The position numbers and the translations under genes were made by a program. From assembly GCA_003973265.1 (NCBI GenBank), contig QNYZ01000036.1, positions 3,434-67,433 of the forward strand: a stretch of 64,000 nt of DNA, given 5' to 3'. Of this stretch, positions 1 to 14,087 are shown piece after piece. Below the pieces are notes generated by a model that saw only the letters and a list, made by a program, of their open reading frames with translations, was not told the origin of the DNA and made no database searches. The stretch's first letter is position 1. The number at the start of each line of letters is the position of its first letter. Source of the DNA: Deltaproteobacteria bacterium. Its GTDB lineage: Bacteria > Desulfobacterota > Desulfobacteria > Desulfobacterales > QNYZ01.

Positions 1-958
1 AGGCCGTCAGAAAAGCTGCATAAATCGGGTCATCGGCCACATCCGGCCCGGACGGGACCACCTGAATGCGGCTGTCTCCGCACGATGATGTGGGGGACAT
101 GCGGTACACTGCCGGGGCCGGTCCCTCAACAGCAAACTGCCAATCCGCCTCAAAAATGGTTCGATAGGTCGATATCACCGGCCCCTGCTGGCAAAAACTG
201 AGATCGATCCAGCAATCGGCCGGACAATGTGGCCCCAGGTATTCAACCGCCAGATTTCTTCCGCCGGTCCAGACCTTTTTCTGATCCACGATAACCATTT
301 TTCTGTGATTGCGCAGGTTCGTTCTCCCCCGCAGCGGCCGGTGCAACACGGGAATAAACCGGGCCACCTCTCCCCCGTTTCGAATAAGCGGATTCAAATC
401 ACTTTGGGCTGTTTTGAAGGACCCGACACCATCCAGCAACAACCGGACCTGAACACCCTGGGCCGCCTTTTCCGTCAACCGGGATAAGACCGCCTTCCCC
501 ACCGGATCGTCTCCCAGAATAAAGATGGCAATATCAATGCTTTCCCGTGCACTACCAAGCAAATCGCTTAGCGCCTGCCAGGCGGCCTGTCCATTTTGAT
601 GAAACTGGACAGCATTGTTTTCGCTGGACGGAGAAATGCCAAGAGACGTCAGGAGTGAATGGACCGGGTGGGGATGGGCCTCCGGTGATTCCGGCAGATG
701 GATCTGTGCCTTTCCTGCAATCCTGGTCACGATCTTAAGCTTACGTTCACCAAAGGCCAGATAAAGCGGAATACCGATCAGGGGCACAAAAACAATCACC
801 AGAATCCAGCCCATGGAGACCGCGGGTTTACGGGGGGTGCGCAGTATCTGGGAAATCAGGATGACGGCCAGAAGGACAGTAACTATCGTGGACAAATGAA
901 GCAGTAGCGGCCAGATGTTGCCAATCATCGAATGCAGTCCGGACGTTGTGTGGGGCAT
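1..958 (-). CDS. cls: Cardiolipin synthase (phospholipase D / HKD family), N-terminal ~319 aa; the 3' end runs off the window
   Basis: Absent from the ORF track because it is open to the window edge. Manual reverse-complement translation from ATG 958: MPHTTSGLHSMIGNIWPLLLHLSTIVTVLLAVILISQILRTPRKPAVSMGWILVIVFVPLIGIPLYLAFGERKL... There are two N-terminal TM helices followed by the first HKD motif, NHRKMVIVD. I saw no stops in my manual translation down to position 1. Confidence 0.8.
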   Translation of the reverse strand, partial: MPHTTSGLHSMIGNIWPLLLHLSTIVTVLLAVILISQILRTPRKPAVSMGWILVIVFVPLIGIPLYLAFGERKLKIVTRIAGKAQIHLPESPEAHPHPVHSLLTSLGISPSSENNAVQFHQNGQAAWQALSDLLGSARESIDIAIFILGDDPVGKAVLSRLTEKAAQGVQVRLLLDGVGSFKTAQSDLNPLIRNGGEVARFIPVLHRPLRGRTNLRNHRKMVIVDQKKVWTGGRNLAVEYLGPHCPADCWIDLSFCQQGPVISTYRTIFEADWQFAVEGPAPAVYRMSPTSSCGDSRIQVVPSGPDVADDPIYAAFLTA

Positions 959-989: not shown

Positions 990-1397
990 TTAGTGGTCGA
1001 CCGTTACAAAAAGGCTGATCAGGGTAAGAATGGTGCATCCAGCCAATGCCAGACTATATGCTTTGATCAGCCATCTCGGTGTCATGTCCAGATCAAGATC
1101 TTCCATGCGTAGATGTAAATGACTATACCGCCAGGCGGCCTGCAGAAAAGAGACCGTGCTGAATGAAAGCAGAATCGTGGCAATGGCCAGCAATACCCAC
1201 GGTGGGATATCACCCTTTAAAAATTTTTCGATCCCCAGTCCGGCCGCAAAGGTTGAAACGCCCGTTCTCACCCATGCCTGGTAGGTTCTCTCGTTGGCCA
1301 GAACAGTCCGATCCAGTGCCAGCTTGACCGAATCCGTTTTCAAAGCTTGCGGGTTGATTTTATTTTTTTCAGATGACCGGCCGTGTTGTATGTTCAT
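990..1397 (-). CDS. DUF202 (YidH-like) small inner-membrane protein
   Basis: 135 aa. The LANERTYQAWVRTGVSTFAAGLGI motif is typical of DUF202, and there are three hydrophobic helices. Confidence 0.7.
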   Translation of the reverse strand: MNIQHGRSSEKNKINPQALKTDSVKLALDRTVLANERTYQAWVRTGVSTFAAGLGIEKFLKGDIPPWVLLAIATILLSFSTVSFLQAAWRYSHLHLRMEDLDLDMTPRWLIKAYSLALAGCTILTLISLFVTVDH

Positions 1398-1650
1398 TTA
1401 TTATTCCCTGTCAGTTGCTGTTAAGGGATCATATCACCTTCAGATATAGATTACCCATCTTACCAGACAATATCAAGAACGGGATAAAAGATACGAAACG
1501 ATTGACACCTCTTATTCCACCGGACGACGAAATACCTGGCACGGAAAGACCTGCTAAAAAAATGGCTTGAAGTGACAATATATAATTGAGTACATTTAAT
1601 GAGGCAAGAGGAAATGTGCCTTTAAATCCGCGGAAGTGAGGGGAAAATCA

Positions 1651-2535
1651 ATGACGAGAACCAGGGCGCTGTTTTTCGGCATGACCACCATCGACTGTAT
1701 CTATCTGGCCGACCAGCCGCCCGGTTGCAACGAAAAGATCGTGGCGGACCGGCAACTGATCTGTGCCGGCGGCCCCGGTACCAACGCGGCCATGACCTTC
1801 AATGCCCTGGGCGGAAAGGCCACGCTCATCAGCTGCCTGGGTTTGCATCCATTGGCATCGGTTGCGCACAATGAGCTAAAACTCCACGGAGTCGATCATA
1901 TGGAGCTTTGCCCGGAGTTTTCATCGGTTCCCACGATGTCGTCGATTCTTGTATCAAAAGACACCGGTGACCGGTCCGTGGTTTCGGTCAATTCAAATCC
2001 TATCCAAAGCCATTATCCGGACATGACGAAAATATCCCTCCACGGATATACCGCGGCGCTATTTGACGGGCAGTATATGACACTGGCGACCGCCCTGGCC
2101 GGCGCCTGCCGTCAGGCCGGCATTCATACCGTTCTGGATGGCGGCAGCTGGAAGCCGGGCACCGAAAAATTGATTCGCCATATTGACACGGCGATCTGTT
2201 CATCAAACTTCATGCCACCGGGCATTTCGGATTCTGAAAATATTCTGATATGGCTTCAAAACCGGGGGGTTTCAGAAGTTGCGATCACCCGGGGCGCCGG
2301 CCCGATCCTGGCGGCTGAAAACGGAACGCGGTTTGAGGTATTGCCCCCGCAAATCACTTCGGTTCGGGACACATTGGCCGCCGGCGATATCTTTCACGGC
2401 GCGTTTACCTATTACTATTCAAAAAATCCGGCCGGAAAATTCAGCGACCATCTGAAAAAGGCCGCGGTGATTGCCGCCGGATCATGTATCCATTTCGGGC
2501 CCCGGAAGTGGATGAACGATCTGCCTGCAGGGTGA
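1651..2535 (+). CDS. PfkB-family (ribokinase-like) carbohydrate kinase
   Basis: N-terminal GGPGTNAA and C-terminal DTLAAGDIFHGAF (the DTxGAGD ATP/anion-hole motif). ATG 1651 is preceded by GAGGGG. The track ORF begins at 1636. Confidence 0.75.
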   Translation: MTRTRALFFGMTTIDCIYLADQPPGCNEKIVADRQLICAGGPGTNAAMTFNALGGKATLISCLGLHPLASVAHNELKLHGVDHMELCPEFSSVPTMSSILVSKDTGDRSVVSVNSNPIQSHYPDMTKISLHGYTAALFDGQYMTLATALAGACRQAGIHTVLDGGSWKPGTEKLIRHIDTAICSSNFMPPGISDSENILIWLQNRGVSEVAITRGAGPILAAENGTRFEVLPPQITSVRDTLAAGDIFHGAFTYYYSKNPAGKFSDHLKKAAVIAAGSCIHFGPRKWMNDLPAG

Positions 2536-2589: not shown

Positions 2590-4116
2590 CTATTCAACCC
2601 AGTCAAAGGTCCGGTCCACGGCTTTCTGCCATCCACGGACCCCTTTTTCACGATCCACCGGTTTCATATCGGGCTGCCAGGTTTTATCTTCGGCCCAGTT
2701 TTGTCGCAATGATTTCAGATCCGTCCAGTACCCAACAGCCAACCCCGCCGCATAGGCCGCGCCCAGGGCCGTGGTTTCGGCCACTTTGGGACGAATCACC
2801 GGGACATTGAGGATATCGGCCTGGAACTGCATGAGCAGTTCATTGGCCACCATGCCGCCGTCTACTTTGAGGTGGGTCAGGTCAATGCCGGCATCTTTGT
2901 TCATGGCATCGACAATATCCATGGTTTGATATGCACAGGCTTCGAGTACGGCACGGGCCACATGGCCCTTGTTGACAAAGCGGGTGAGCCCGGCAATCAC
3001 CCCGCGGGCATCCGGGCGCCAGTACGGGGCAAACAGGCCGGAAAACGCCGGCACAATATACGCGCCGCCATTGTCATCAACAGTCTGCGCCAGGGTTTCC
3101 ACCTCCGGTGCGCTGGCGATAAGCCCCAGGTTGTCCCGCAGCCATTGCACCAGCGCCCCGGCCATGGCTACGGACCCTTCCAGACAATAGACCGGCTTTT
3201 CACCGCGGATCTGATACCCCACCGTGGTGAGCAGGCCGTGGCGGGATACGACCGGTGTCTCACCGGTGTTGAGCAGGAGAAAACAGCCGGTCCCGTAAGT
3301 GTTTTTGGCCTCGCCCGCGTCAAAACAGGCCTGGCCCACCAGGGCGGCCTGCTGGTCACCCACGGCGCCGCACACGGGAACGGCCGCGCCCAGGGCGCTC
3401 TCTTTCGATGTCAACCCCCAGGGAACGGTATCGACGGATGGAACGATGGTCGGCAGCATTTGGCGGGGAATCTCCAGGGCGTCCAAAATTTCTTCGTCCC
3501 AGGCAAGGGCTTTTAAATTCATCAGCAGGGTACGGCTGGCGTTGGACACATCGGTGACGTGGGCGCCGCCGTTCGGCCCGCCGGTGAGCCACCAGATAAT
3601 CCAGCTTTCAATGGTGCCAAAGAATGCGTCGCCGGATCTGGCCGCCGACTTTGCCTCGGGGACGTGGTCGAGGATCCATCGGATTTTAGGCCCGGAAAAG
3701 TAGGTACTGACGGGCAGCCCGGTTTTTTCCCGGAACCGGTCCGGTCCGGATTCGCCGGCCAGCTGGCGGCAGATTTTATCGGTGCGGGTACACTGCCAGA
3801 CAATGGCGTTGTAAAAGGGCCGGCCGGTGCGTTTGTCCCATACCACCGTGGTTTCCCGCTGGTTGGTGATCCCGATGGCGGCAAGGGCATCACCGGCGAT
3901 TCCGGCATTTTTCAGGGCCCCGGCGATGACTTTTTCGGTGTTTTTCCAGATCTCCATGGGGTCGTGTTCGACCCACCCCGGCTTGGGAAAAATCTGCGCG
4001 TGTTCCATCTGCTCCAGACCGATGATCCGTCCCTCGTGGTCAAAGATAATAAACCGGTTGCTTGTCGTCCCTAAATCAACCGCGCCGATGTATTGATTCC
4101 CGATGGTTCGATTCAT
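2590..4116 (-). CDS. glpK: Glycerol kinase
   Basis: [31 protein letters not shown] and [10 protein letters not shown] are canonical FGGY/GlpK signatures. ATG 4116 follows GAAGGAGGAA and overlaps the upstream stop as ATGA. Confidence 0.95.
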
Positions 4117-4970
4117 GGGGTTCCTCCTTCGGTAGGTGTCCATTGTATCCGGTTTTCATTCATCCCCAGCCCGGCCGGTGCGATGCCCAGCGCAAGGCCC
4201 AGCAGCTGCGGATATAAAACCGCGGGGATCGGCGGGGCATGCGGAAGGGTTTCCAACCGTACCTGATCGAATTGATGCTGACAATAGGTGCAGGCCGTGC
4301 AGATCATATCCGCCCCGGCCTGATCGGCATCCTCGATTTTTTTCTGCATCAGCCGGGTCGATATTACGCGGTTTTTTTCCCACAGGGGCGCTCCGCAGCA
4401 GTTGAGCCGCAGGGGCCAGTCAACGGCCGTGGCACCGGTTACGGCAATCAGGTCTTCAAAAATCGTTGGTGCCTGGGGATCGTCAAACCCGACAATATTA
4501 GCCGGCCGCAGGGCATGGCAGCCGTAATGAGCGGCAACCCGGATGTCCTTTTGAGGGTGAACCACGGCCGTGGCGACAGCAGCCAGGCCGAGGTCCTCCT
4601 TTAATACCTGCAGAAGATGCCGGACCCGGATGCCCGGTTTCCAGCGCAGATTTTCTTTTCTCAGGATCGCGTTGACCCGGCGGCGCAGCACGCGGTTTTC
4701 CCCGAGCCAGTACTGGGCATGCCGGAGGTTTCCATAGCAGCACTGGCACGGCGTCATCAGCGGTGCGCCGATCTGATCGGCCAGCGCCAGGACCCGGGCC
4801 GAGGATAATAACGACGCTTCCAGATGCTGATGCCGGACGGGATAGCCGCAGCAGTTGAATTCAGAATCGACCAGATCGATGCCGAGCGCTTTAAATATCC
4901 CGCGCGTGGCGCGGTCATAGGCCGGCAGCCAGGCCGGAATTTTACATCCGGGAAAATAGACATATTTCAT
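4113..4970 (-). CDS. HdrB-like / GlpC C-terminal-like protein with two CCG cysteine-rich domains
   Basis: 285 aa. Two CCG motifs ([16 protein letters not shown]), each with accompanying Cys clusters ([15 protein letters not shown]). Start and stop overlap both neighbouring genes. Confidence 0.8.
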
Positions 4971-6706
4971 GGGGCGGCCTCCGGGGCTTCCTCTTTCGGC
5001 CGGTGGGAAATCGATTGCGAATCCAGGTGATGAACGGTGTCAGGATAAAACCGCCGGTAGGCGATATTTCTCAATTCATAGAGGACGTCGGCCACCCGGA
5101 CGCCCTGGGGGCAGTGTTCCTGGCACATATAGCAGGTGACGCAATTCCACACCATCCGTGCGCCCAGAGCATCGTCGGCCATCTGAAGGCGCAGCAGGTT
5201 CATAATCTGCTGGGGCGTCAGGTCGAGTTCCCGGGCCGGATCGTCGGCGGCTTCCACCACCGGGCAGACCGTTGTGCAGATCGTACACTGGATGCATCCC
5301 CTGAATGTTTCCGGCCGGTCGGTCAGATGAATTGCCGGAAAGGTTTTCTTGAAAGACGGCCCGGATGCGACCGATCGTTCCGACGCCAGGTGTGCCCATT
5401 CATGGGCCGGCTTTTTCATGATCCAGTGGTGGGCCTCGGTAAATCCCTGTCGCCGCAGGTCCTGCTTCGATGCCTGCCAGATATCTTTCAAATCGATTCC
5501 CGACGGGCAGACCTCCGTACAGCGACCGCAGTCGGTACAGATGAAGCTGCCTTCGGCCAGGAGCGCGGCCTCGGCCTCAGATCCGTGCCGGTGGCGGACA
5601 TGACGTGCGAACCCGGCCAGTTTTTCCGATGGCAGAATGGTGATGTTGTCGATCAGTAACTGGATGGGAGCTACCTTGCAGTGCAGGCTGCAAATGCCGC
5701 AATGGGTACATGCGTCCAGCCCAAGCGCACGTCGGTTGGCCAGCTGGGCGGGGGAAACGGTATCGGTAGTACGGCTGCCGCAAATCAGCAGGTTGACCGG
5801 TGTGGCAATCAGATGGAAAAATTTGCCGAACGGCAACCAGGCCAGGGCGGCAAAGGCGGACAGGAAATGGATATACCACAGCCAGGTATCCATACGAATA
5901 CGGTTAAAGCGCCGGGCCACCGGCCGGATGAACCGGGCCACGGGATAACTCATAAAAGCTGATACCGGGCGGGAATGACAGGAAATGCAGTATTCGTCGT
6001 GCGTTTCATACCCCTCGGCAAGTACGGCCGGATCGTCGGTGTCGACCGGGTTTTCAAAAACCACCCCGTATTGGGACGCCCAGTACGCCCGGAGCGGGGC
6101 CAGTATTTCCTCGTCGTCTTCGTCCAGGTACTCGTCCACCATCTCGTTGAAGATCGGTTCCGAAACGATCTGGACGGCCTCAAGCATCATACCGGAAACA
6201 ATGACCATACCGATGAAAAAAAGGGTAAAGGTATCCATGGCGCGGGTCATCTGGCGCAGCCGATGGCCGGCCACCCGGCGAATCATCGCAATCCCCGCCC
6301 CGGCCAATACCATCAGCCCGAATAGATCGCGGAGCCACAAAAAGGGGTTGAGCGTCGATTCATAATCCGGAAAAAAAGTACGCGTCAGCGGATCGTCGAG
6401 GGCATGCATCAGAATCAGCAAGATCATTCCGTAAAACAGGCAGATATGCATAATCCAGCGCCAGAAGCTCTGGTGGAGGATATTGAGCTGCAGCAATACG
6501 TCGGTAATAAATATGCCGATCAGCTTGAAAACCCGGCGGCTGACCAAGGCGCGAATCGTCTGGCCGGTGGCAGCCGTGATTCGGGCGCCCACGGTCAGGG
6601 TATCGGTTTCCGGGCCGATGCGGAGGGTTACCCATCTTTGCGTCCGGAAAAGGATGCCTGCCACACAAATCCCCAGCGCCAGATATAGTGAAATGGTAAA
6701 TATCAT
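4967..6706 (-). CDS. Membrane-integral cytochrome-b-like (NarI/HdrE/DsrM-type) domain fused to a poly-[4Fe-4S] ferredoxin (HdrC-like) domain
   Basis: 579 aa. The N-terminal half has ~5-6 hydrophobic helices with conserved His (WRWIMHICLFYGMILLILMHALDD, WYIHFLSAF, FFHLIATP). The C-terminal half carries four Cys cluster motifs: CTHCGICSLHC, CTDCGRCTEVCP, CIQCTICTTVCP and CVTCYMCQEHCP. Confidence 0.7.
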   Translation of the reverse strand: MIFTISLYLALGICVAGILFRTQRWVTLRIGPETDTLTVGARITAATGQTIRALVSRRVFKLIGIFITDVLLQLNILHQSFWRWIMHICLFYGMILLILMHALDDPLTRTFFPDYESTLNPFLWLRDLFGLMVLAGAGIAMIRRVAGHRLRQMTRAMDTFTLFFIGMVIVSGMMLEAVQIVSEPIFNEMVDEYLDEDDEEILAPLRAYWASQYGVVFENPVDTDDPAVLAEGYETHDEYCISCHSRPVSAFMSYPVARFIRPVARRFNRIRMDTWLWYIHFLSAFAALAWLPFGKFFHLIATPVNLLICGSRTTDTVSPAQLANRRALGLDACTHCGICSLHCKVAPIQLLIDNITILPSEKLAGFARHVRHRHGSEAEAALLAEGSFICTDCGRCTEVCPSGIDLKDIWQASKQDLRRQGFTEAHHWIMKKPAHEWAHLASERSVASGPSFKKTFPAIHLTDRPETFRGCIQCTICTTVCPVVEAADDPARELDLTPQQIMNLLRLQMADDALGARMVWNCVTCYMCQEHCPQGVRVADVLYELRNIAYRRFYPDTVHHLDSQSISHRPKEEAPEAAP

Positions 6707-6781
6707 TTTGAATCGGTGTTGTTTCTACTCCGTTACCCGTTGTCGCAAATGATTTTTTCTAATGAGCCCCACGGGTAGAGA

Positions 6782-8095
6782 TCATCCGGAAATAAACCGC
6801 TGGAAAGCGTTAACAGCCGCGAACGCGGTGGTGATCCCAAGGCCGGCCCCACATTTTTGCCGGACCCAGTCCTGGTGGGCCAGGATCGATCCGGCGGCGA
6901 ACAGGCCGGGGATTGCCGGGTGCCGGTTATTATTCAGCGGCCGCCATTGATCGTCGGTGGTGATGCCGAACCGGTTGATCGGATGCCCCCTCGGATCGAG
7001 AAACGATTTTTGGTGCCACTCGGAACGGGTGACCGGTTGAAACACCGGCAGGTTGAACAGGGTCTCACGAACCGATTTGCGATCTGTGGTCAGCCCCCCG
7101 CCGATGAACCGGCCACTGGCCAGAATGGCCCCTTTGGCCGTGATAACGCGCCGCAGGTGGTCCCGGCCGACATCAAAGCGGAAGCCGTTTCGGCCCTGTT
7201 TATCAACCGCGGTTATTTTTTGCTGATAATGGGTACGGACAAAAAGGCGGGGCAGGGCCTTTTCAAAGGCCGCTTTTATCCGCAGCCCGCCGATGGCCGG
7301 CGGCATGGTCGGGATCTCAAATACCGGCCGGTTCAGTTGTTTCTGCAGATCTTCAAAGACCGCCATCGGCCGGTACATCCCCAGAATCGCCGGCAAAGCC
7401 ACATATTCGGCCGAATGGATGTGGGGCGCTATCTCGCCGGCCAGCTGGGCCCGGCATTCGGGGCTTTCAAGAGACAGGGCCATATGCTCGGGCAGCAGCT
7501 CGCCGGATGTATCGGGAAACGAAATCCGCCGGGTCGTGAGGTTCGGCCAGGTTTTATCAAGTGTTTCAACGATCTGTCTGCCGCTGAATCCCTTGAGCCC
7601 GTGAAAATCAACCACCAGGCAAGACGCCTTTTCAGCCAGGGCCCGGACGCCGTTTTGAACCGTGGCCGGCACGGCATAAGTGGTTTTAAGGGTACCGGTC
7701 GGTGTGATCATGGCGAGGTTCTTCCCGGGCTCGGTATAATAGGGCAGACCATGGGCCGCTAAAAAAGAAACAAAGCCGGAAAGCGCAGACTGTATATCCT
7801 TTTTATCTAAAAAGGCGTACGGGTGCCGGGGGTGTTCTGCAACCAATGCCCCGATGCCGTCAAAGGGACGATCCCATATGCGGCCGTCTTCAACCGGGTG
7901 GACGCCCAAAAGATCGAGAAAGCCGCTGGCAAAGCCCAGTTCCCCGGCCCGGCCCACCTGTACCGTATCTATTCCAAGATTTGCGGCAAACAGCGCGGCG
8001 GCCATGCCGGTGATGCCCGATCCGATCACCAGTAGATCGCAGCTTATTTCCGGTAAATTATCCATAAAGTCGTTTTTCGATGACGAAGCGTACAA
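6782..8095 (-). CDS. glpB: Anaerobic glycerol-3-phosphate dehydrogenase subunit B
   Basis: FAD fold DLLVIGSGITGMAAAL plus ASGFLDLLG, both typical of GlpB, and a position directly after glpA. The start is either TTG 8095 or ATG 8065. Confidence 0.85.
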   Translation of the reverse strand: MYASSSKNDFMDNLPEISCDLLVIGSGITGMAAALFAANLGIDTVQVGRAGELGFASGFLDLLGVHPVEDGRIWDRPFDGIGALVAEHPRHPYAFLDKKDIQSALSGFVSFLAAHGLPYYTEPGKNLAMITPTGTLKTTYAVPATVQNGVRALAEKASCLVVDFHGLKGFSGRQIVETLDKTWPNLTTRRISFPDTSGELLPEHMALSLESPECRAQLAGEIAPHIHSAEYVALPAILGMYRPMAVFEDLQKQLNRPVFEIPTMPPAIGGLRIKAAFEKALPRLFVRTHYQQKITAVDKQGRNGFRFDVGRDHLRRVITAKGAILASGRFIGGGLTTDRKSVRETLFNLPVFQPVTRSEWHQKSFLDPRGHPINRFGITTDDQWRPLNNNRHPAIPGLFAAGSILAHQDWVRQKCGAGLGITTAFAAVNAFQRFISG

Positions 8096-8121
8096 AATCC
8101 GCCGGACGCGTTCGCGTCATG

Positions 8122-9768
8122 TTATGCGTTAACGCGTCCGGATGGGCCCCCGCCTGCACCCGGTTTATCCGGTTGCCCTTTCGGATCGTTTAGTTCAAGG
8201 CCAAAGAGGCCGCAATGCATGGCTTCCTGCAACTGGGCCTGAATCAGCGGGACGTCCCACAATAACGGATGCTGGCCGCGCCAGCGTTCACTTAAAAACT
8301 GATGGAGGTTGACGATCCCCTCGTTTTTTTTAAAAACGCCCCGATCGTACAGATGGGCGGTGAGGCGCTGGCTGCAGAAAGCACCCTGGCAGGGCCCCTT
8401 GCCGACCCGGCTGCGCAGACCGATGGCTTCCAGTGTGGGGGTGATGTTTAATCGGCCCATGTTGCGGATGATCTGATCGACCGTATGCCGGGAGACCATT
8501 TCGCATTCGCATAATAACAGGTCCGTGGGATCGTTTTGTTTCATCCATTGATGCGGGGCCAGCCCCGGCTCGGTCCATTGTCCATCGGTGGAGGCCGGCA
8601 GCGGTTCGGTACAGGTCTGGCACGCCGGATCAATCCCCAGCCTTTGGCATACCAGATTGGCTGCTTTTTCGGCCATGAATCGATACGTGGTCAGTTTACC
8701 GCCGGTAATGGTGATGAAATTATCCACATGGTCGCGGGTATGATCGATGAGAGCATACCCCCGGCTCACCTTCCGGTCGTCACCGCTGTTTGCGTCGCCC
8801 ACCAGCGGCCGGACGCCGCAATAAGCCCGGATATAGCGGGTGGTTTCAAGAACCGGTATCATCATGGCACCTTCTTCGATGATGTGATCGATTTCCTCGA
8901 TCTCCGGATAAATATTGTCGGGCGTTTCGGTGCGGACCGACGTCGTTCCGAGGATCGATACGGTGCCGCCCGGCACGAGAATATCGGCATCCGTGGCCAG
9001 GCGCAGCCGATTGACCACCCGCCGGGTGATCCGGCTCTGGGTAACCAGCAGGCTGCCCTTGGAATAGATCATCGGGATGGAAATACCGGCCTGCGCGGCC
9101 ACCTGGTCGGCCCAGGCGCCGGCCGCATTGACCACGATCTCGGCCCGGACCGTATATTCCCGGCCCGTTCGGGTGTCGACCAGGTGAACGGCCGTTATTT
9201 CCGACTGTTTAACGGTCAATCCCGTGACACGGGTAAAGCGAAAAAACCGGGCGCCCTTGTCCACCGCCTGGGCGATATTGTCGAGGGTCAGGCGGAAAGG
9301 ATCGATGGCAGCGTCATCCACAGCATAGGCGGCAATGAGCCTGTCCGACAGGGCCGGCTCCATTTCCCGGGCATCGGCCAGATCGACGGCACGGGCGGAA
9401 ATGCCGCTTTGGGCGCATAGTTGGGGGAAATCGGCAATATATTTTTCATCATCACCCGCAACCGCCACAAACAGACCGCCGCAGGTATCGATACAATGGG
9501 GGGCCAGCTTTTTGAGAATATGGTTTTCTTTCCGGCATTCCACCGCCGAGGCCGGGTCGGACTTGATATACCGCGCGCCGCTGTGCAGCAGGCCATGATT
9601 GGCACCCGACGCCCCGGCCGTCAGGTCTTTCTGCTCGACCAGGATACATCCAATCCCGCGCAGGGTTAAATCCCGGACCAGGCCGGCACCGGTTACCCCC
9701 GCACCGATAATCAGGACCTGGGTGTGGATAGGCGGCTGGCATGATCCGGGTGTGTTCAAAATCGACAT
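8122..9768 (-). CDS. glpA: Anaerobic glycerol-3-phosphate dehydrogenase subunit A (FAD, with C-terminal BFD-like [2Fe-2S] domain)
   Basis: VLIIGAGVTGAGLVRDLTLRG...GASGANHGLLHSGARY at the N-terminus. C-terminal Cys pattern LLCECEMV...GKGPCQGAFC. Confidence 0.9.
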   Translation of the reverse strand: MSILNTPGSCQPPIHTQVLIIGAGVTGAGLVRDLTLRGIGCILVEQKDLTAGASGANHGLLHSGARYIKSDPASAVECRKENHILKKLAPHCIDTCGGLFVAVAGDDEKYIADFPQLCAQSGISARAVDLADAREMEPALSDRLIAAYAVDDAAIDPFRLTLDNIAQAVDKGARFFRFTRVTGLTVKQSEITAVHLVDTRTGREYTVRAEIVVNAAGAWADQVAAQAGISIPMIYSKGSLLVTQSRITRRVVNRLRLATDADILVPGGTVSILGTTSVRTETPDNIYPEIEEIDHIIEEGAMMIPVLETTRYIRAYCGVRPLVGDANSGDDRKVSRGYALIDHTRDHVDNFITITGGKLTTYRFMAEKAANLVCQRLGIDPACQTCTEPLPASTDGQWTEPGLAPHQWMKQNDPTDLLLCECEMVSRHTVDQIIRNMGRLNITPTLEAIGLRSRVGKGPCQGAFCSQRLTAHLYDRGVFKKNEGIVNLHQFLSERWRGQHPLLWDVPLIQAQLQEAMHCGLFGLELNDPKGQPDKPGAGGGPSGRVNA

Positions 9769-9979: not shown

Positions 9980-10840
9980 ATGAATCAGGTTCCGGAAAAA
10001 CGGGATCGGGATAATCCTGAGACAGCCCCGACTTCTCCGATTATGCTAAATGGCCGCCAGGCACCGGTTCGGCAGCGGCAGCAGGCAATTTTGAAACTCG
10101 TTCGGGATAAGGGATATGTAACCAACGAATCGTTGGCACGCCATTTTTCGGTGACCCCCCAGACCATTCGGCGCGATATTAATTCCCTGTGCGACAACGG
10201 CTGGCTGCAGCGCTACCATGGGGGCGCCGCCCCCGCGTCGAGCATTGAAAACGTGGCCTATAACGACCGGCGGATTATCTGCCTGGAAGAAAAACAGCGG
10301 ATCGGCGAGATGGTGGCTGCTCAGATTCCCGAAAAAGCCTCGCTTTTCATCAATATCGGCACCACCACTGAAGAGGTGGCCAAAGCGCTTTGCGGCCACC
10401 GCCACCTGCGGGTAATTACCAATAATATCAATGTGGCGGTTATTCTCAGCAAAAACGAAGATTTCGATATCATGGTCACCGGTGGAAAGATTCGCAACCG
10501 GGATTGCGCCCTGTCCGGCGAGGCCACCGTCGATTTTATCCGGCAGTTCAAGGTCGATTACGGGATCATCGGTATCAGTGGGATCGATTCGGACGGCTCG
10601 CTGATGGATTTCGATTATGGCGAAGTTCGGGCAGCCCGGACGATCATCGACAACTCGCGCCGGGTATTCCTGGTGGCCGATCATACCAAGTTCGGCCGCA
10701 AGGCCATGGTGCGTCTGGGCAATATGACCGAAATTGATGCCTTGTTTACCGACCGGGAGCCACCGGTACCCGTGGTGAAGATGATGAAAAACGCCGGCGG
10801 GCAGATCTATACAATCGAAAAATTGCCCCGGGGAAAATAG
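9980..10840 (+). CDS. glpR: DeoR-family glycerol-3-phosphate regulon repressor
   Basis: HTH region RQQAILKLVRDKGYVTNESLARHFSVTPQTIRRDINSLCDNGWLQRYHGGA followed by a DeoR C-terminal sensor domain. AAGGA lies 9 nt upstream of ATG 9980. An alternative start is ATG 10043. Confidence 0.85.
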   Translation: MNQVPEKRDRDNPETAPTSPIMLNGRQAPVRQRQQAILKLVRDKGYVTNESLARHFSVTPQTIRRDINSLCDNGWLQRYHGGAAPASSIENVAYNDRRIICLEEKQRIGEMVAAQIPEKASLFINIGTTTEEVAKALCGHRHLRVITNNINVAVILSKNEDFDIMVTGGKIRNRDCALSGEATVDFIRQFKVDYGIIGISGIDSDGSLMDFDYGEVRAARTIIDNSRRVFLVADHTKFGRKAMVRLGNMTEIDALFTDREPPVPVVKMMKNAGGQIYTIEKLPRGK

Positions 10841-10855
10841 CGATAAAGAACATTC

Positions 10856-10893
10856 AGGGATTAATATTTTCGCTTGCGAAAATATTAATCCCT
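10856..10893. promoter_or_regulatory. Perfect 18-bp inverted repeat between glpR and the glycerol-type ABC operon (candidate GlpR operator)
   Basis: AGGGATTAATATTTTCGC-tt-GCGAAAATATTAATCCCT. It is AT-rich and lacks a following T-tract, so it is unlikely to be a terminator. Confidence 0.6.
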
Positions 10894-10963
10894 TGGTATC
10901 TGTAAATACAGGGAACAAACACCTGAGGCGAACGCCATCGTATGCGAAAGGAAAGCCTTCCCC

Positions 10964-12037
10964 ATGGGTCTGACATTAAAAGATGTCGATAAGGTTGTCG
11001 GCCGGGAAATTTATCTGAAAGATATCAACCTGCATCTGGAGCCGGGTTCACGCAACGTCATCCTGGGGCGGACACTGGCCGGCAAAACCACGCTGCTGCG
11101 GATCATGGCCGGGCTGGACCGCCCCGGCCGGGGACGGATTCGGGTCGGTGAAAAAGACGTAACCGGCGTGTCGGTCCGCAAGCGCAACGTGGCCATGGTT
11201 TACCAGCAGTTTATCAACTACCCTTCCCTGTCTGTTTTTAATAATATTGCCTCACCTTTGAAGCTGGCCGGTCTGAAAAAAGATGAAATCAGCCGGCGCG
11301 TAAATGAAACCGCGGCGATGCTTCATATCGAGGACCTGCTCGACCGTCTTCCCGCCGAGCTTTCCGGCGGTCAGCAGCAGCGCGTGGCCATTGCCCGCGC
11401 CCTGGTCAGAGAAACCGACCTGCTGTTAATGGATGAACCACTGGTCAATCTCGACTATAAGCTCCGCGAAGAACTGCGAATCGAACTTCAGGAAATTTTC
11501 GTCCGGGGAAGGGCGATCGTGGTTTATACCACGACGGAACCGACCGAAGCCCTGATGCTGGGCGGAAATGTCATCGTCATGGATGAGGGCCGCATCCTTC
11601 AAACCGGTCCGACGCCGGAGGTATATCGCCATCCGGCATCGATCCGGGTGGCGGAAGTTTTCAGCGACCCCCCGATTAATTTTTTAAAGGGCACAGTGGC
11701 ATCCGGTTCCGTGCAGATCGGCGAGCGGATGACCATTCCCCTGCTGGGTCATTTGAGAGCGCTGGGCGATGGCGCTTATACGTTCGGCGCCCGTTCCAAC
11801 CACCTTTTCCTGACGCCGAACAACGAAGACGATGTTAAAATTCCGGCCAGGGTGGAATTAACGGAAATCAACGGGTCGGAAACCTTTATCCACGCCCGAT
11901 ATGATGACTTCAGGCTGGTGGTCCAGGAAAAGGGGGTTCGCCATGTGGCCATCGGGAGCGACATCGATATCTATGTCAATCCTGCCGGTTTTTTTGCCTA
12001 TGATGCCGACGGCATCCTGGCGGCGGCACCTGCGTAA
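10964..12037 (+). CDS. ABC transporter ATP-binding protein (MalK/UgpC-like), glycerol-type importer ATPase 1
   Basis: Walker A GRTLAGKTT, signature LSGGQQQRV, Walker B LLLMDEP, and a C-terminal MalK-like regulatory domain. Confidence 0.85.
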   Translation: MGLTLKDVDKVVGREIYLKDINLHLEPGSRNVILGRTLAGKTTLLRIMAGLDRPGRGRIRVGEKDVTGVSVRKRNVAMVYQQFINYPSLSVFNNIASPLKLAGLKKDEISRRVNETAAMLHIEDLLDRLPAELSGGQQQRVAIARALVRETDLLLMDEPLVNLDYKLREELRIELQEIFVRGRAIVVYTTTEPTEALMLGGNVIVMDEGRILQTGPTPEVYRHPASIRVAEVFSDPPINFLKGTVASGSVQIGERMTIPLLGHLRALGDGAYTFGARSNHLFLTPNNEDDVKIPARVELTEINGSETFIHARYDDFRLVVQEKGVRHVAIGSDIDIYVNPAGFFAYDADGILAAAPA

Positions 12038-12110
12038 GCGGTTTTTTGAAAAATAAAACCTTAAATTGAGCGAGAGAGAAATCGCGCCATTCAGCAGCAA
12101 GGAGATGGAA

Positions 12111-13199
12111 ATGGCTCGCATCGAGCTGAGTAAAATTGCCCACAGCTACCACCCGAACCCGGCGGAGCCGGCCGACTATGCCTTAAAGCGGATCCACACC
12201 GTCTGGAAAGACGGCGGTGCCTACGCGCTGTTGGGGCCGTCGGGCTGCGGGAAAACAACGCTGCTCAATATCATCTCCGGCCTGGTAACGCCCAGCCGGG
12301 GGCAGGTGCTTTACGATGATCGGGACGTCACCCCGCTGCCACCGGAAAAGCGGAATATCGCCCAGGTTTTCCAGTTTCCCGTCCTCTACGACACCATGTC
12401 GGTATACAATAATCTGGCGTTTCCCCTGCGAAACCGGAAGATGAGTGACGCCCGGATCAAAGAACGCGTCCTGGAAGTGGCCGACAGCCTTGATTTGACG
12501 CCTTTTCTTAATAAGAAGGCCGCCGGGCTGGCGGCGGATGCCAAGCAGAAAATTTCCCTGGGCCGAGGCCTGGTAAGAAGCGATGTGGCGGCGATTCTTT
12601 TTGATGAACCGCTGACGGTCATTGATCCCCAGATGAAATGGGAGCTGCGCCGCAAGCTCAAGGAGATCCACGAGCAACTCAAACTGACATTCATTTACGT
12701 AACCCATGATCAGACGGAAGCACTGACCTTTGCCGACCAGGTAGCGGTGATGTTTGAAGGGGAGATCGTCCAGCTCGGGTCCCCTCAGGATCTTTTCGAA
12801 AATCCCGAACATCGGTTCGTCGGCTATTTCATCGGCAGCCCGGGAATGAATTTTCTAAAATGCACGATCGAGGGAGCCAGCGCGCACATCGACGGCGCCG
12901 GCTGCATCGAACTTGCACCGGAAATCGCCGAAAAGGGACGAAAGGCCGATGGAAAACTGGAGATCGGCATCCGGCCCATGTACCTTAAGATTCACACCCG
13001 CTGGACCAAAGGCATGCTCAAGGCCGGAGTGAAAGGGGTTGAGGATCTGGGTAGTTACCGGATTGTCACCCTGGATGTGGCCGGAAGAACGTTAAAGGCC
13101 ATGCTCTCCGAGAGCGAAGCCGTACCCGAAGGAACGGTGGGCGTTTCTTTTCCCCGCCAGTGGATCCGGCTGTTCGAAGATGGCTGGTTAATCAAATAA
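12111..13199 (+). CDS. ABC transporter ATP-binding protein (MalK/UgpC-like), glycerol-type importer ATPase 2
   Basis: Walker A GPSGCGKTT and Walker B ILFDEP. AAGGAG lies 7 nt upstream of ATG 12111. The track ORF starts at TTG 12066. Confidence 0.85.
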   Translation: MARIELSKIAHSYHPNPAEPADYALKRIHTVWKDGGAYALLGPSGCGKTTLLNIISGLVTPSRGQVLYDDRDVTPLPPEKRNIAQVFQFPVLYDTMSVYNNLAFPLRNRKMSDARIKERVLEVADSLDLTPFLNKKAAGLAADAKQKISLGRGLVRSDVAAILFDEPLTVIDPQMKWELRRKLKEIHEQLKLTFIYVTHDQTEALTFADQVAVMFEGEIVQLGSPQDLFENPEHRFVGYFIGSPGMNFLKCTIEGASAHIDGAGCIELAPEIAEKGRKADGKLEIGIRPMYLKIHTRWTKGMLKAGVKGVEDLGSYRIVTLDVAGRTLKAMLSESEAVPEGTVGVSFPRQWIRLFEDGWLIK

Positions 13200-13211
13200 A
13201 GGAGTCAATGC

Positions 13212-14087
13212 ATGGAGAAATGGCCCGATAACAAGGCCTGGCTGCTGGTATTGCCGGTGTTTGTCATTGTTGCCTTCAGTGCCATCATACCGCTGTTAAC
13301 CGTGATCAACTATTCGGTTCAGGATATCTTCGGACCGGGGCAGAGCGTATTTGTCGGGGTCGACTGGTTCCGGGAAATGCTGCAGGACTACCGGTTGCGC
13401 GAAGCCCTCTGGCGGCAGTTTCTCTTTTCCGGCCTTGTCCTGATTATCGAGATCCCGCTGGGCGTGCTCATCGCCCTGGCCATGCCGAAACGGGGGTGGA
13501 AAGCCTCGGCTGCGCTGGTCACCCTGGCATTACCGCTGCTGATTCCCTGGAATACCATCGGTACGATCTGGATTATTTTCACCCGTCCGGATATCGGTCT
13601 GCTGGGTGCCGTAATCAACAATCTGCTGGGCATCCCGTTTGACCATACGGCCAGCCCTCTTGATGCATGGATTACGGTGATGCTGATGGAAGTCTGGCAC
13701 TGGACCCCGCTGGTCGCCCTGCTGGCCTATTCGGGATTGCGTGCCATCCCGGAAGCATACTACCAGGCCGCCCGGATTGACGGCGCCTCCGCCTGGTCTA
13801 CTTTTTTGTATGTCCAGCTCCCCAAGATGCGGGGCGTCTTAACCATCGCTTTTCTGCTCCGCTTTATGGACAGCTTTCTGATTTACGCGGAACCGTTTGT
13901 TCTAACGGGGGGCGGACCCGGAAATTCAACGACCTTTCTCTCCCTCTACCTGGTCAAAATTGCCCTGCTGCAGTTTGACCTGGGGCCGGGCGCGGCATTT
14001 TCGCTGATCTACTTTATCATCGTTCTGCTGTTCAGTTTCATCTTTTATCAGGCCCTGCAACGTGTCGGCAAAGGAGAAACCGTATGA
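13212..14087 (+). CDS. ABC transporter permease (MalF/UgpA-type)
   Basis: 291 aa, multiple TM helices, EAA-like loop AYYQAARIDGASAWSTFLYVQLP. Confidence 0.85.
   Translation: MEKWPDNKAWLLVLPVFVIVAFSAIIPLLTVINYSVQDIFGPGQSVFVGVDWFREMLQDYRLREALWRQFLFSGLVLIIEIPLGVLIALAMPKRGWKASAALVTLALPLLIPWNTIGTIWIIFTRPDIGLLGAVINNLLGIPFDHTASPLDAWITVMLMEVWHWTPLVALLAYSGLRAIPEAYYQAARIDGASAWSTFLYVQLPKMRGVLTIAFLLRFMDSFLIYAEPFVLTGGGPGNSTTFLSLYLVKIALLQFDLGPGAAFSLIYFIIVLLFSFIFYQALQRVGKGETV

Follow-up and report, generated by a model that had tools for sequence, protein, structure and literature searches.

In sulfate reducers and their relatives, the electrons that cytoplasmic dehydrogenases release have to reach the menaquinone pool, and the route that they take bears on energy yield. 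A membrane protein proposed for this role, HdrF, was described in Desulfobacterium autotrophicum HRM2 as an HdrD-like protein that combines multiple transmembrane (TM) helices with domains that show homology to HdrC and HdrB (Strittmatter et al., 2009; PMC2702500). According to the same paper, the hdrF1 and hdrF2 loci adjoin glpAB, and HdrF was put forward as the path by which electrons travel from GlpAB to the quinone pool; one form is encoded by two genes, given as hdrF2F2' in the main text and as HdrF1/F1' in a supplement legend. A 2024 figure on Pseudodesulfovibrio methanolicus and other sulfate-reducing bacteria shows a cluster of glpK, an Hdr-like gene, glpBA, glpR and glpSTPQUV (PMC11505543, legend to Fig. 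S8). Here we analyse a locus of this kind in a 64,000-nucleotide stretch of DNA from a Deltaproteobacteria bacterium with a genome of the sulfate-reducer type (the window), in which glpA and glpB are followed by genes for a 579-amino-acid (aa) membrane protein and a 285-aa HdrB-like protein, and then by glpK.

The closest characterised analogue of this gene pair is EMO/EtfD (an "HdrF"), an ETF:(methyl)menaquinone oxidoreductase in which electrons leave a cytoplasmic flavoprotein and reach (methyl)menaquinone by way of non-cubane clusters, cubane clusters and haem b (bioRxiv 10.64898/2026.08.18.745454). Purification and structures have been reported for both, from S. aciditrophicus by cryo-electron microscopy (10.64898/2026.08.18.745454) and from M. 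smegmatis as entry 9OJN (PMC13083937). As is also predicted for the window pair, they combine a five-helix haem b domain that resembles NarI with an HdrC-like domain of two cubane clusters and an HdrB-like domain of non-cubane clusters. A preliminary description of the window had likened the pair to HdrED, DsrMK and the Hme complexes instead. The logic is indeed shared, since in HdrED, DsrMK and HmeCD a dihaem b membrane subunit is coupled to cubane and CCG clusters, but EMO/EtfD is the closer analogue. HdrED, DsrMK and HmeCD reduce disulfides or trisulfides with quinol, and they pair a cytochrome b that stands alone with a fused HdrC/B-like protein, whereas in the window the ferredoxin domains form one protein with the cytochrome b and HdrB has a gene of its own. 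At the level of family models, the NCBIfam QmoC model gave 62 bits, far short of the 300 that its cut-off demands, and among the matches listed (25 of 39 families) the DsrK model did not appear.

The window fits the published description of HdrF on both counts. Two adjacent genes together provide multiple TM helices, an HdrC-like domain and an HdrB-like domain, and an electron-donating flavoprotein, here glpAB, is clustered with them both in the window and at 21 further loci. Going by that description, the pair is probably orthologous to HdrF1-3 of strain HRM2. The Pseudodesulfovibrio cluster has the same layout as the window, regulator and ABC (ATP-binding cassette) transporter included; the figure is an annotation, and its legend does not discuss the nature of the membrane cytochrome or its cofactors (PMC11505543). 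The arrangement is therefore not new, as it is already present in genome papers (PMC2702500, PMC11505543), and its practical value is modest for that reason. What the locus offers is a clean and widely conserved example of an EMO/HdrF-type membrane module that replaces GlpC and that appears to serve more than one flavoprotein dehydrogenase. New in this work are a candidate haem c site (a CxxCH motif plus a Met), a ferredoxin domain additional to that of EMO, and variants of the module that are fused or stand away from glp genes. The points that most deserve the attention of specialists are the extra ferredoxin domain and the invariant CxxCH, which is predicted to face the periplasm.

The glp locus and the missing GlpC

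Positions 2590-9768 of the window hold five co-directional open reading frames (ORFs) on the minus strand, in the order glpA, glpB, 579-aa protein, 285-aa protein and glpK. We consider it likely that these five genes encode a membrane-bound anaerobic glycerol-3-phosphate (G3P):menaquinone oxidoreductase together with a glycerol kinase. Behind this reading stand the gene identities, the domain content, the conservation of ligands, the likeness in fold to EtfD/EMO and NarI, a recurrent gene order and the absence of GlpC, all of which we computed here.

The first gene, glpA (8122-9768), encodes the large subunit of anaerobic G3P dehydrogenase, a protein of 548 aa with a flavin adenine dinucleotide domain and a C-terminal BFD-like 2Fe-2S domain (Pfam DAO and Fer2_BFD), which scores above the GlpA equivalog cut-off (TIGR03377, 588.7 bits; cut-off 552.8). 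The product of glpB (6782-8095; 437 aa) likewise exceeds its equivalog cut-off (NF003725, 549.6 bits; cut-off 345). The glpB ORF opens with TTG at 8095, and the ATG at 8065 is, from the sequence, more likely to be the true start. The genes for the 579-aa membrane cytochrome with four [4Fe-4S] clusters (4967-6706; Pfam Nitrate_red_gam and Fer4 families) and for the 285-aa HdrB-like subunit with two CCG motifs of the non-cubane cluster type (4113-4970) come next, and the last gene, glpK (2590-4116), encodes a glycerol kinase above equivalog cut-off (NF000756, 764.7 bits). An ATGA sequence at 4967-4970 overlaps the stop of the 579-aa gene with the start of the 285-aa gene, and a second one at 4113-4116, preceded by a GGAGGA ribosome-binding site, overlaps the stop of the 285-aa gene with the start of glpK. 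The glpK ORF itself extends to 4143 (517 aa); the overlap at 4113-4116 indicates a likely start at Met10 (4116). This gene content, with two genes following glpA and glpB instead of glpC, and both of the ATGA couplings had been put forward in the preliminary description, and all are present in the DNA.

In the source genome, which is 87% complete, no protein or reading frame reaches the GlpC cut-off (TIGR03379). The best match is a 725-aa protein with LUD, Fer4 and two CCG domains (G000:C5:62534-63679; L001:1408-3585) that resembles the lactate dehydrogenase subunit LdhH, and a canonical GlpC elsewhere in the genome was ruled out as nothing lies above the cut-off. The two proteins of the pair also fall short of the GlpC equivalog NF008369 (cut-off 278), with 76.2 bits for the 579-aa protein and 27.4 bits for the 285-aa protein. 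The proposal that GlpC has been replaced at this locus, which a canonical glpC at another site would have weakened, thus stands. We found no second copy of the membrane domain in the source genome, where it is single-copy. The E. coli GlpABC complex shares the GlpA and GlpB equivalogs with the window, and its GlpC likewise has an HdrC-like dicluster domain and two CCG motifs; unlike the window pair, E. coli GlpC is a single protein of ~400 aa with neither TM helices nor haem.

Domains and predicted cofactors of the module

Along the 579-aa protein, a NarI-type domain of five helices is followed by two dicluster domains of ferredoxin type, of which the second is HdrC-like. The NarI-type TM domain (residues 1-310; 5777-6706, minus strand) exceeds the cut-off of Pfam Nitrate_red_gam (PF02665; 22.9) with 27.3 bits, in a match confined to residues 125-181. 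It holds four His residues, H87, H101, H280 and H298, which are the predicted ligands of two b haems. All four are 100% conserved in 120 close relatives (44-80% identity) and are kept in 63-65 of the 65 rows of a representative alignment, made of 64 family representatives from 50%-identity clusters plus the query. A family profile of the membrane domain, compared with NarI of E. coli K-12, aligned H280/H298 to NarI H187/H205 in helix V, where the two proteins share a PF-x-x-x-x-H motif and where the pair has the spacing of 18 residues that the NarI type requires; in a search across the Protein Data Bank (PDB), the E-values were 6e-4 to 1e-3. H87 and H101 (63-64 of 65 rows) are 14 residues apart as against 10 in NarI, and the profile left helix II unaligned to NarI. 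A single-sequence phmmer search of the PDB with helix V gave nothing useful. Hydropathy and loop charges, read by the positive-inside rule, fit the topology of NarI and EMO, with the N-terminus outside, five helices and the C-terminus inside. The polytopic N-terminal half had been likened to a NarI/HdrE/DsrM-type b-cytochrome from the start, and the family match above cut-off, the four conserved His residues and the correspondence of H280/H298 with H187/H205 bear this out.

The C-terminal half matches several dicluster Fer4 families of Pfam and carries, just as first reported, four Cys cluster motifs: CTHCGICSLHC (333-343), CTDCGRCTEVCP (390-401), CIQCTICTTVCP (471-482) and CVTCYMCQEHCP (522-533). 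All 16 cluster Cys are 99-100% conserved in the 120 relatives. The motifs at 333 and 390 lie in the first dicluster domain (residues ~320-420; 5447-5749, minus strand), whose Cys are 100% conserved and which sits under the membrane domain; HdrC chains match it structurally with Z 9.0-9.3, in an aligned range that ends at model residue 423. Those at 471 and 522 lie in the second dicluster domain (residues ~465-560; 5027-5314, minus strand), which matches HdrC (5odc_C) with an E-value of 1.2e-10 in phmmer and of 2.5e-15 with the family profile. Structurally, HdrC chains match both ferredoxin domains (VIA-align Z 8.5-9.3); by sequence, only the second is clearly HdrC-like.

An AlphaFold2 model of the 579-aa protein, built on 83 relatives, reached a predicted local distance difference test score (pLDDT) of 87.3. 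Its best structural match by far was EtfD of Mycobacterium smegmatis (9OJN), with a VIA-align Z of 24.1 and a root-mean-square deviation of 3.9 over 336 residues, covering model residues 1-527 at 19% identity; Foldseek gave an E-value of 6.8e-7 for the same entry. Sequence searches did not detect 9OJN, neither phmmer with the protein nor hmmsearch with the family profile, and the match was found by structure comparison alone. Chains of E. coli NarI came next (Z 9.9-10.6; 170-187 of ~220 residues; model residues 1-320), a level of similarity that, between helical bundles, gives by itself moderate support to the five-helix fold.

Set against EMO, the module shows several differences. EMO is one polypeptide that includes the HdrB-like domain, while the window encodes that part in a gene of its own (285 aa). 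The 579-aa protein has two dicluster domains with four cubane clusters where EMO has one with two, and four conserved His where EMO has three, and, unlike EMO, it has a loop of ~90 residues with a CxxCH motif between TM IV and TM V. The partner of EMO is ETF, whereas the neighbours in the window are glpA, glpB and glpK, and partnership with GlpAB is predicted from this gene context. The preliminary description mentions neither the conserved CxxCH nor the fact that one of the dicluster domains has no counterpart in EMO. The passages on HdrF in the D. autotrophicum paper also make no mention of a CxxCH motif or of a second ferredoxin domain, both of which are found in the window protein (PMC2702500).

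The 285-aa protein carries the motifs EFNCCGYP and LNCCGAPL, and Pfam CCG matches it at 82.4 bits over two stretches. Both of its five-Cys sets (Cys 9, 40, 41, 75 and 77/78; Cys 151, 191, 192, 227 and 230) are conserved in 31 sequences, in agreement with the two CCG domains originally ascribed to it. In phmmer it matches the methanogen HdrB 8rvv_B with an E-value of 3.6e-48, yet it stays below the HdrB equivalog for CoB-CoM heterodisulfide reductase subunit B (TIGR03288, 193.7 bits; cut-off 345.15). With such a match and both five-Cys motifs intact, the subunit might itself be catalytic, in which case the module, like DsrMK or HdrED, would reduce disulfides or trisulfides at the membrane (acting for example on DsrC or another thiol carrier) and would exchange electrons with menaquinol, fed directly by G3P oxidation; the occurrence of the same gene pair away from glpAB would also suit such an enzyme. 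We find this quite improbable, because in EMO/EtfD the same non-cubane clusters only transfer electrons and dock the partner, the pair, placed between glpB and glpK, shows translational coupling, and E. coli GlpC, which has CCG domains too, has no known thiol substrate.

By analogy with EMO/EtfD, we propose the following electron path for a G3P:menaquinone oxidoreductase. GlpAB would oxidise G3P in the cytoplasm and, forming a physical complex with the pair, would dock on the HdrB-like subunit in the place of GlpC, where electrons would enter two non-cubane clusters. From these the path would lead into the 579-aa protein, first to the HdrC-like domain and on to the first ferredoxin domain (together four cubane clusters), then to a proximal haem bP (H87/H298) and a distal haem bD (H101/H280), and would end with the reduction of menaquinone; a third haem, covalently bound at the CxxCH of the putatively periplasmic loop, may lie beside the distal haem. 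The order of the cofactors and menaquinone as the acceptor are predictions, and quinone might bind on either side of the membrane, so that the step may consume, conserve or ignore the membrane potential. The redox potentials of the two couples, dihydroxyacetone phosphate/G3P and menaquinone, are about -190 mV and about -74 mV, which makes the step from G3P to menaquinone exergonic. A haem b/Fe-S wire leading from G3P oxidation to menaquinone had been suggested in the preliminary description, and the His ligands, the EtfD/NarI fold, the linkage to glpAB and the absence of GlpC all speak for it.

A candidate haem c site in a predicted periplasmic loop

TM IV and TM V are joined by an acidic loop (residues 181-272; 5891-6166, minus strand; 8 K/R vs 18 D/E) of ~90 residues with four short predicted helices. 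The homology of helix V to that of NarI, the cytoplasmic Fe-S domains and the loop charges together suggest that it is periplasmic. It contains a CISCH motif (C240-x-x-C243-H244; 5975-5989, minus strand), a candidate site for covalent attachment of haem c. The CxxCH is invariant in the 120 close relatives and in all 30 locus-derived homologues (35-63% identity), its two middle residues being variable; it is present in 64 of the 65 rows of the representative alignment, and a position-limited pattern scan recovered it in 62 of the 64 representatives. Three more residues of the loop, M189, W209 and G232, are conserved in 63-64 of 65 rows and invariant in the close relatives.

The spacing G-x3-H/N-x3-C-x-x-C-H-S and the local sequence resemble the haem sites of cytochrome c1 and flavocytochrome c, with E-values of 0.05-0.1 that are not significant. 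No cytochrome c model of Pfam reached its threshold; Cytochrome_CBB3 gave 12.7 bits against 27. A structure model of the loop alone (pLDDT 88.8) had no match in Foldseek, and in a wide VIA search its best Z was 3.5, which is not significant; CcoP and cytochrome c555 were among the top rows of that search at Z 3.2-3.4. As for the maturation of haem c, the source genome has two matches to PF01578 (CcsA/ResC-type) above cut-off. The titles and abstracts returned by a limited literature search on CxxCH, NarI and HdrC/HdrB described no haem c site in this family, and the preprint on EMO of S. aciditrophicus (SaEMO) reports b haems only, with no mention of CxxCH or of covalent attachment (bioRxiv 10.64898/2026.08.18.745454). 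On balance, the motif stands about midway between a covalent haem c and the alternative of a metal site or a structural Cys pair.

If a haem is attached there, the membrane domain would be a three-haem b2c cytochrome, with two NarI-type b haems and a covalent haem c bound through C240-x-x-C243-H244 in the TM IV-V loop, for which M189 is a possible sixth ligand. The third haem could then either belong to an unusual quinone site on the P side, for which the stacked twin haem of SaEMO offers a comparison, or serve periplasmic cytochromes as a point of contact. We hold the chances of such a b2c cytochrome to be even. Were it correct, no single-module wire known in the HdrD/EMO superfamily would be as long as this b2c cytochrome with its six Fe-S clusters, and such a b2c module would be common to GlpAB and other donors in sulfate reducers. 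The CxxCH on the predicted periplasmic face, taken with the extra ferredoxin domain, suggests a cofactor set unlike that of the solved EMO/EtfD structures.

A haem in this position also raises the question of where the electrons go. Instead of reducing quinone, or besides doing so, the module could export electrons across the membrane, from the Fe-S chain through both b haems and the haem c of the loop to the periplasmic cytochrome c pool, much like Tmc or Hmc run outward. The invariant CxxCH and M189 fit such a function, as they occur in a loop assigned to the outside on three grounds, the topology of NarI, the positive-inside rule and the Fe-S domains in the cytoplasm; so do the resemblance to cytochrome c1 haem sites and the two CcsA-type maturation proteins of the genome. 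A weak lead in the same direction came from a language-model search (score about 0.8), which retrieved clusters named NarI-family from the same phylum with members that carry multihaem c domains of Pfam. Nevertheless, export seems to us unlikely: the cytochrome c models stay below threshold, the isolated loop model finds no significant fold, the operon holds no gene for a periplasmic cytochrome, and a single haem c near haem bD could equally belong to a quinone site, as in SaEMO with its stacked twin haem. The reduction of menaquinone is our preferred reading.

Distribution and gene neighbourhood

Two sets of loci were compared with the window, 19 informative loci seeded with the 579-aa protein and 35 loci seeded with GlpB. 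Among the former, the order glpA, glpB, TM/ferredoxin gene and HdrB-like gene occurs in 8 of 19, with glpK next in 3 (locus L009 ends before the HdrB-like gene); the HdrB-like gene lies directly 3' of the 579-aa gene in every locus that extends past its 3' end, with L017 as the exception. In the GlpB-seeded set, 13 of 35 loci have this order and 11 of these have glpK next; the carriers belong to Desulfobacteraceae, Desulfosarcinaceae, Pseudodesulfovibrio, Desulfovibrio caledoniensis, Halodesulfovibrio and Desulfomicrobiaceae. Desulfosudis is a further carrier, and three Pseudodesulfovibrio loci (L049, L056 and L074) have the same order as the window. In all, the gene order recurs in at least 21 loci besides the window, across Desulfobacterales and Desulfovibrionales and in at least five families, with glpK next in 14.

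This recurrence bears on whether the two genes are merely co-located with glpAB and glpK while serving an unrelated redox partner, a view in line with the lack of glpAB beside the pair in over half of the loci that the 579-aa protein seeded. Since glpA and glpB precede the pair in so many loci and families, the stop/start overlaps tie the genes together in the window and GlpC is absent from the source genome, we regard mere co-location as very improbable indeed. The neighbourhood survey also decides part of what the preliminary description had staked on gene context, namely that the pair should go with glpAB rather than with unrelated dehydrogenases: the pair adjoins glpAB in many genomes, so the proposal holds, although the association is not exclusive, with 11 of 19 loci lacking it.

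Several observations weigh against the assignment of the module to G3P oxidation. Of the 11 loci seeded with the 579-aa protein that have no glpAB beside the pair, four adjoin Wood-Ljungdahl genes. Eight GlpB-seeded loci of Desulfobulbales have a soluble HdrD/DsrK-like protein in place of the module, and in six others (L040, L043, L046, L047, L051 and L052) glpK directly follows glpB, with no Fe-S partner within ~3.5 kb downstream. GlpAB is thus not strictly dependent on the module. The glp label requires five changes on the family tree, in which the GlpB-seeded loci bias the sampling, so that a single glpAB-linked clade within the family is not supported. Lastly, the 285-aa subunit is closer to catalytic methanogen HdrB, at the E-value given above, than to GlpC, which leaves room for thiol/disulfide chemistry. 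Of the remaining eight GlpB-seeded loci, four end at a contig edge just past glpB and four have no Fe-S partner downstream of it.

The loci without glpAB show what else the module may be used for. In a sub-clade of four (L019:5496-10614, L020, L022 and L025), the pair comes directly after cdhD/acsD and a pterin-binding methyltransferase gene, and in L019 it is followed by genes for a fructose-bisphosphatase (FBPase), a NuoF-like and a formate-dehydrogenase-like protein; in this Wood-Ljungdahl-linked sub-clade the membrane module may be fed by another electron donor. Other loci away from glp genes show no obvious partner. The module is a general one, adopted by GlpAB in many lineages. Fused relatives also exist, as three single polypeptides of 711-716 aa (P0161, P0190 and P0223) have the same membrane domain with its CxxCH, one dicluster domain and two CCG motifs; a search for related loci with P0161 returned only two archaeal HdrD-like matches.

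The Desulfobulbales loci have the order glpK, glpA and glpB, and then the gene for a soluble 438-aa HdrD-type protein (L067:7260-8576 and seven similar loci) that is like HmcF, TmcB and DsrK and falls below the GlpC cut-off. It is a third solution for the electron outlet of GlpAB in this phylum.

Divergently from glpA, the plus strand of the window carries a gene for a DeoR-family, GlpR-like regulator (9980-10840; Pfam HTH_DeoR and DeoRC) and then ABC transporter genes (10964-14087) for two ATPases, one of them with a MalK OB domain, and a permease (Pfam ABC_tran twice, OB_MalK and BPD_transp_1), which probably serve the uptake of glycerol or G3P. The regulator and the transporter of this region (9980-14087) look to complete a locus for the utilisation of glycerol and G3P. 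On the other side, 3' of glpK, lies a gene for a PfkB-family sugar kinase (1636-2535, plus strand); beyond it are a DUF202 membrane protein (990-1397, minus strand) and a PLD-domain protein resembling cardiolipin synthase (2-958, minus strand), which runs off the edge of the window.

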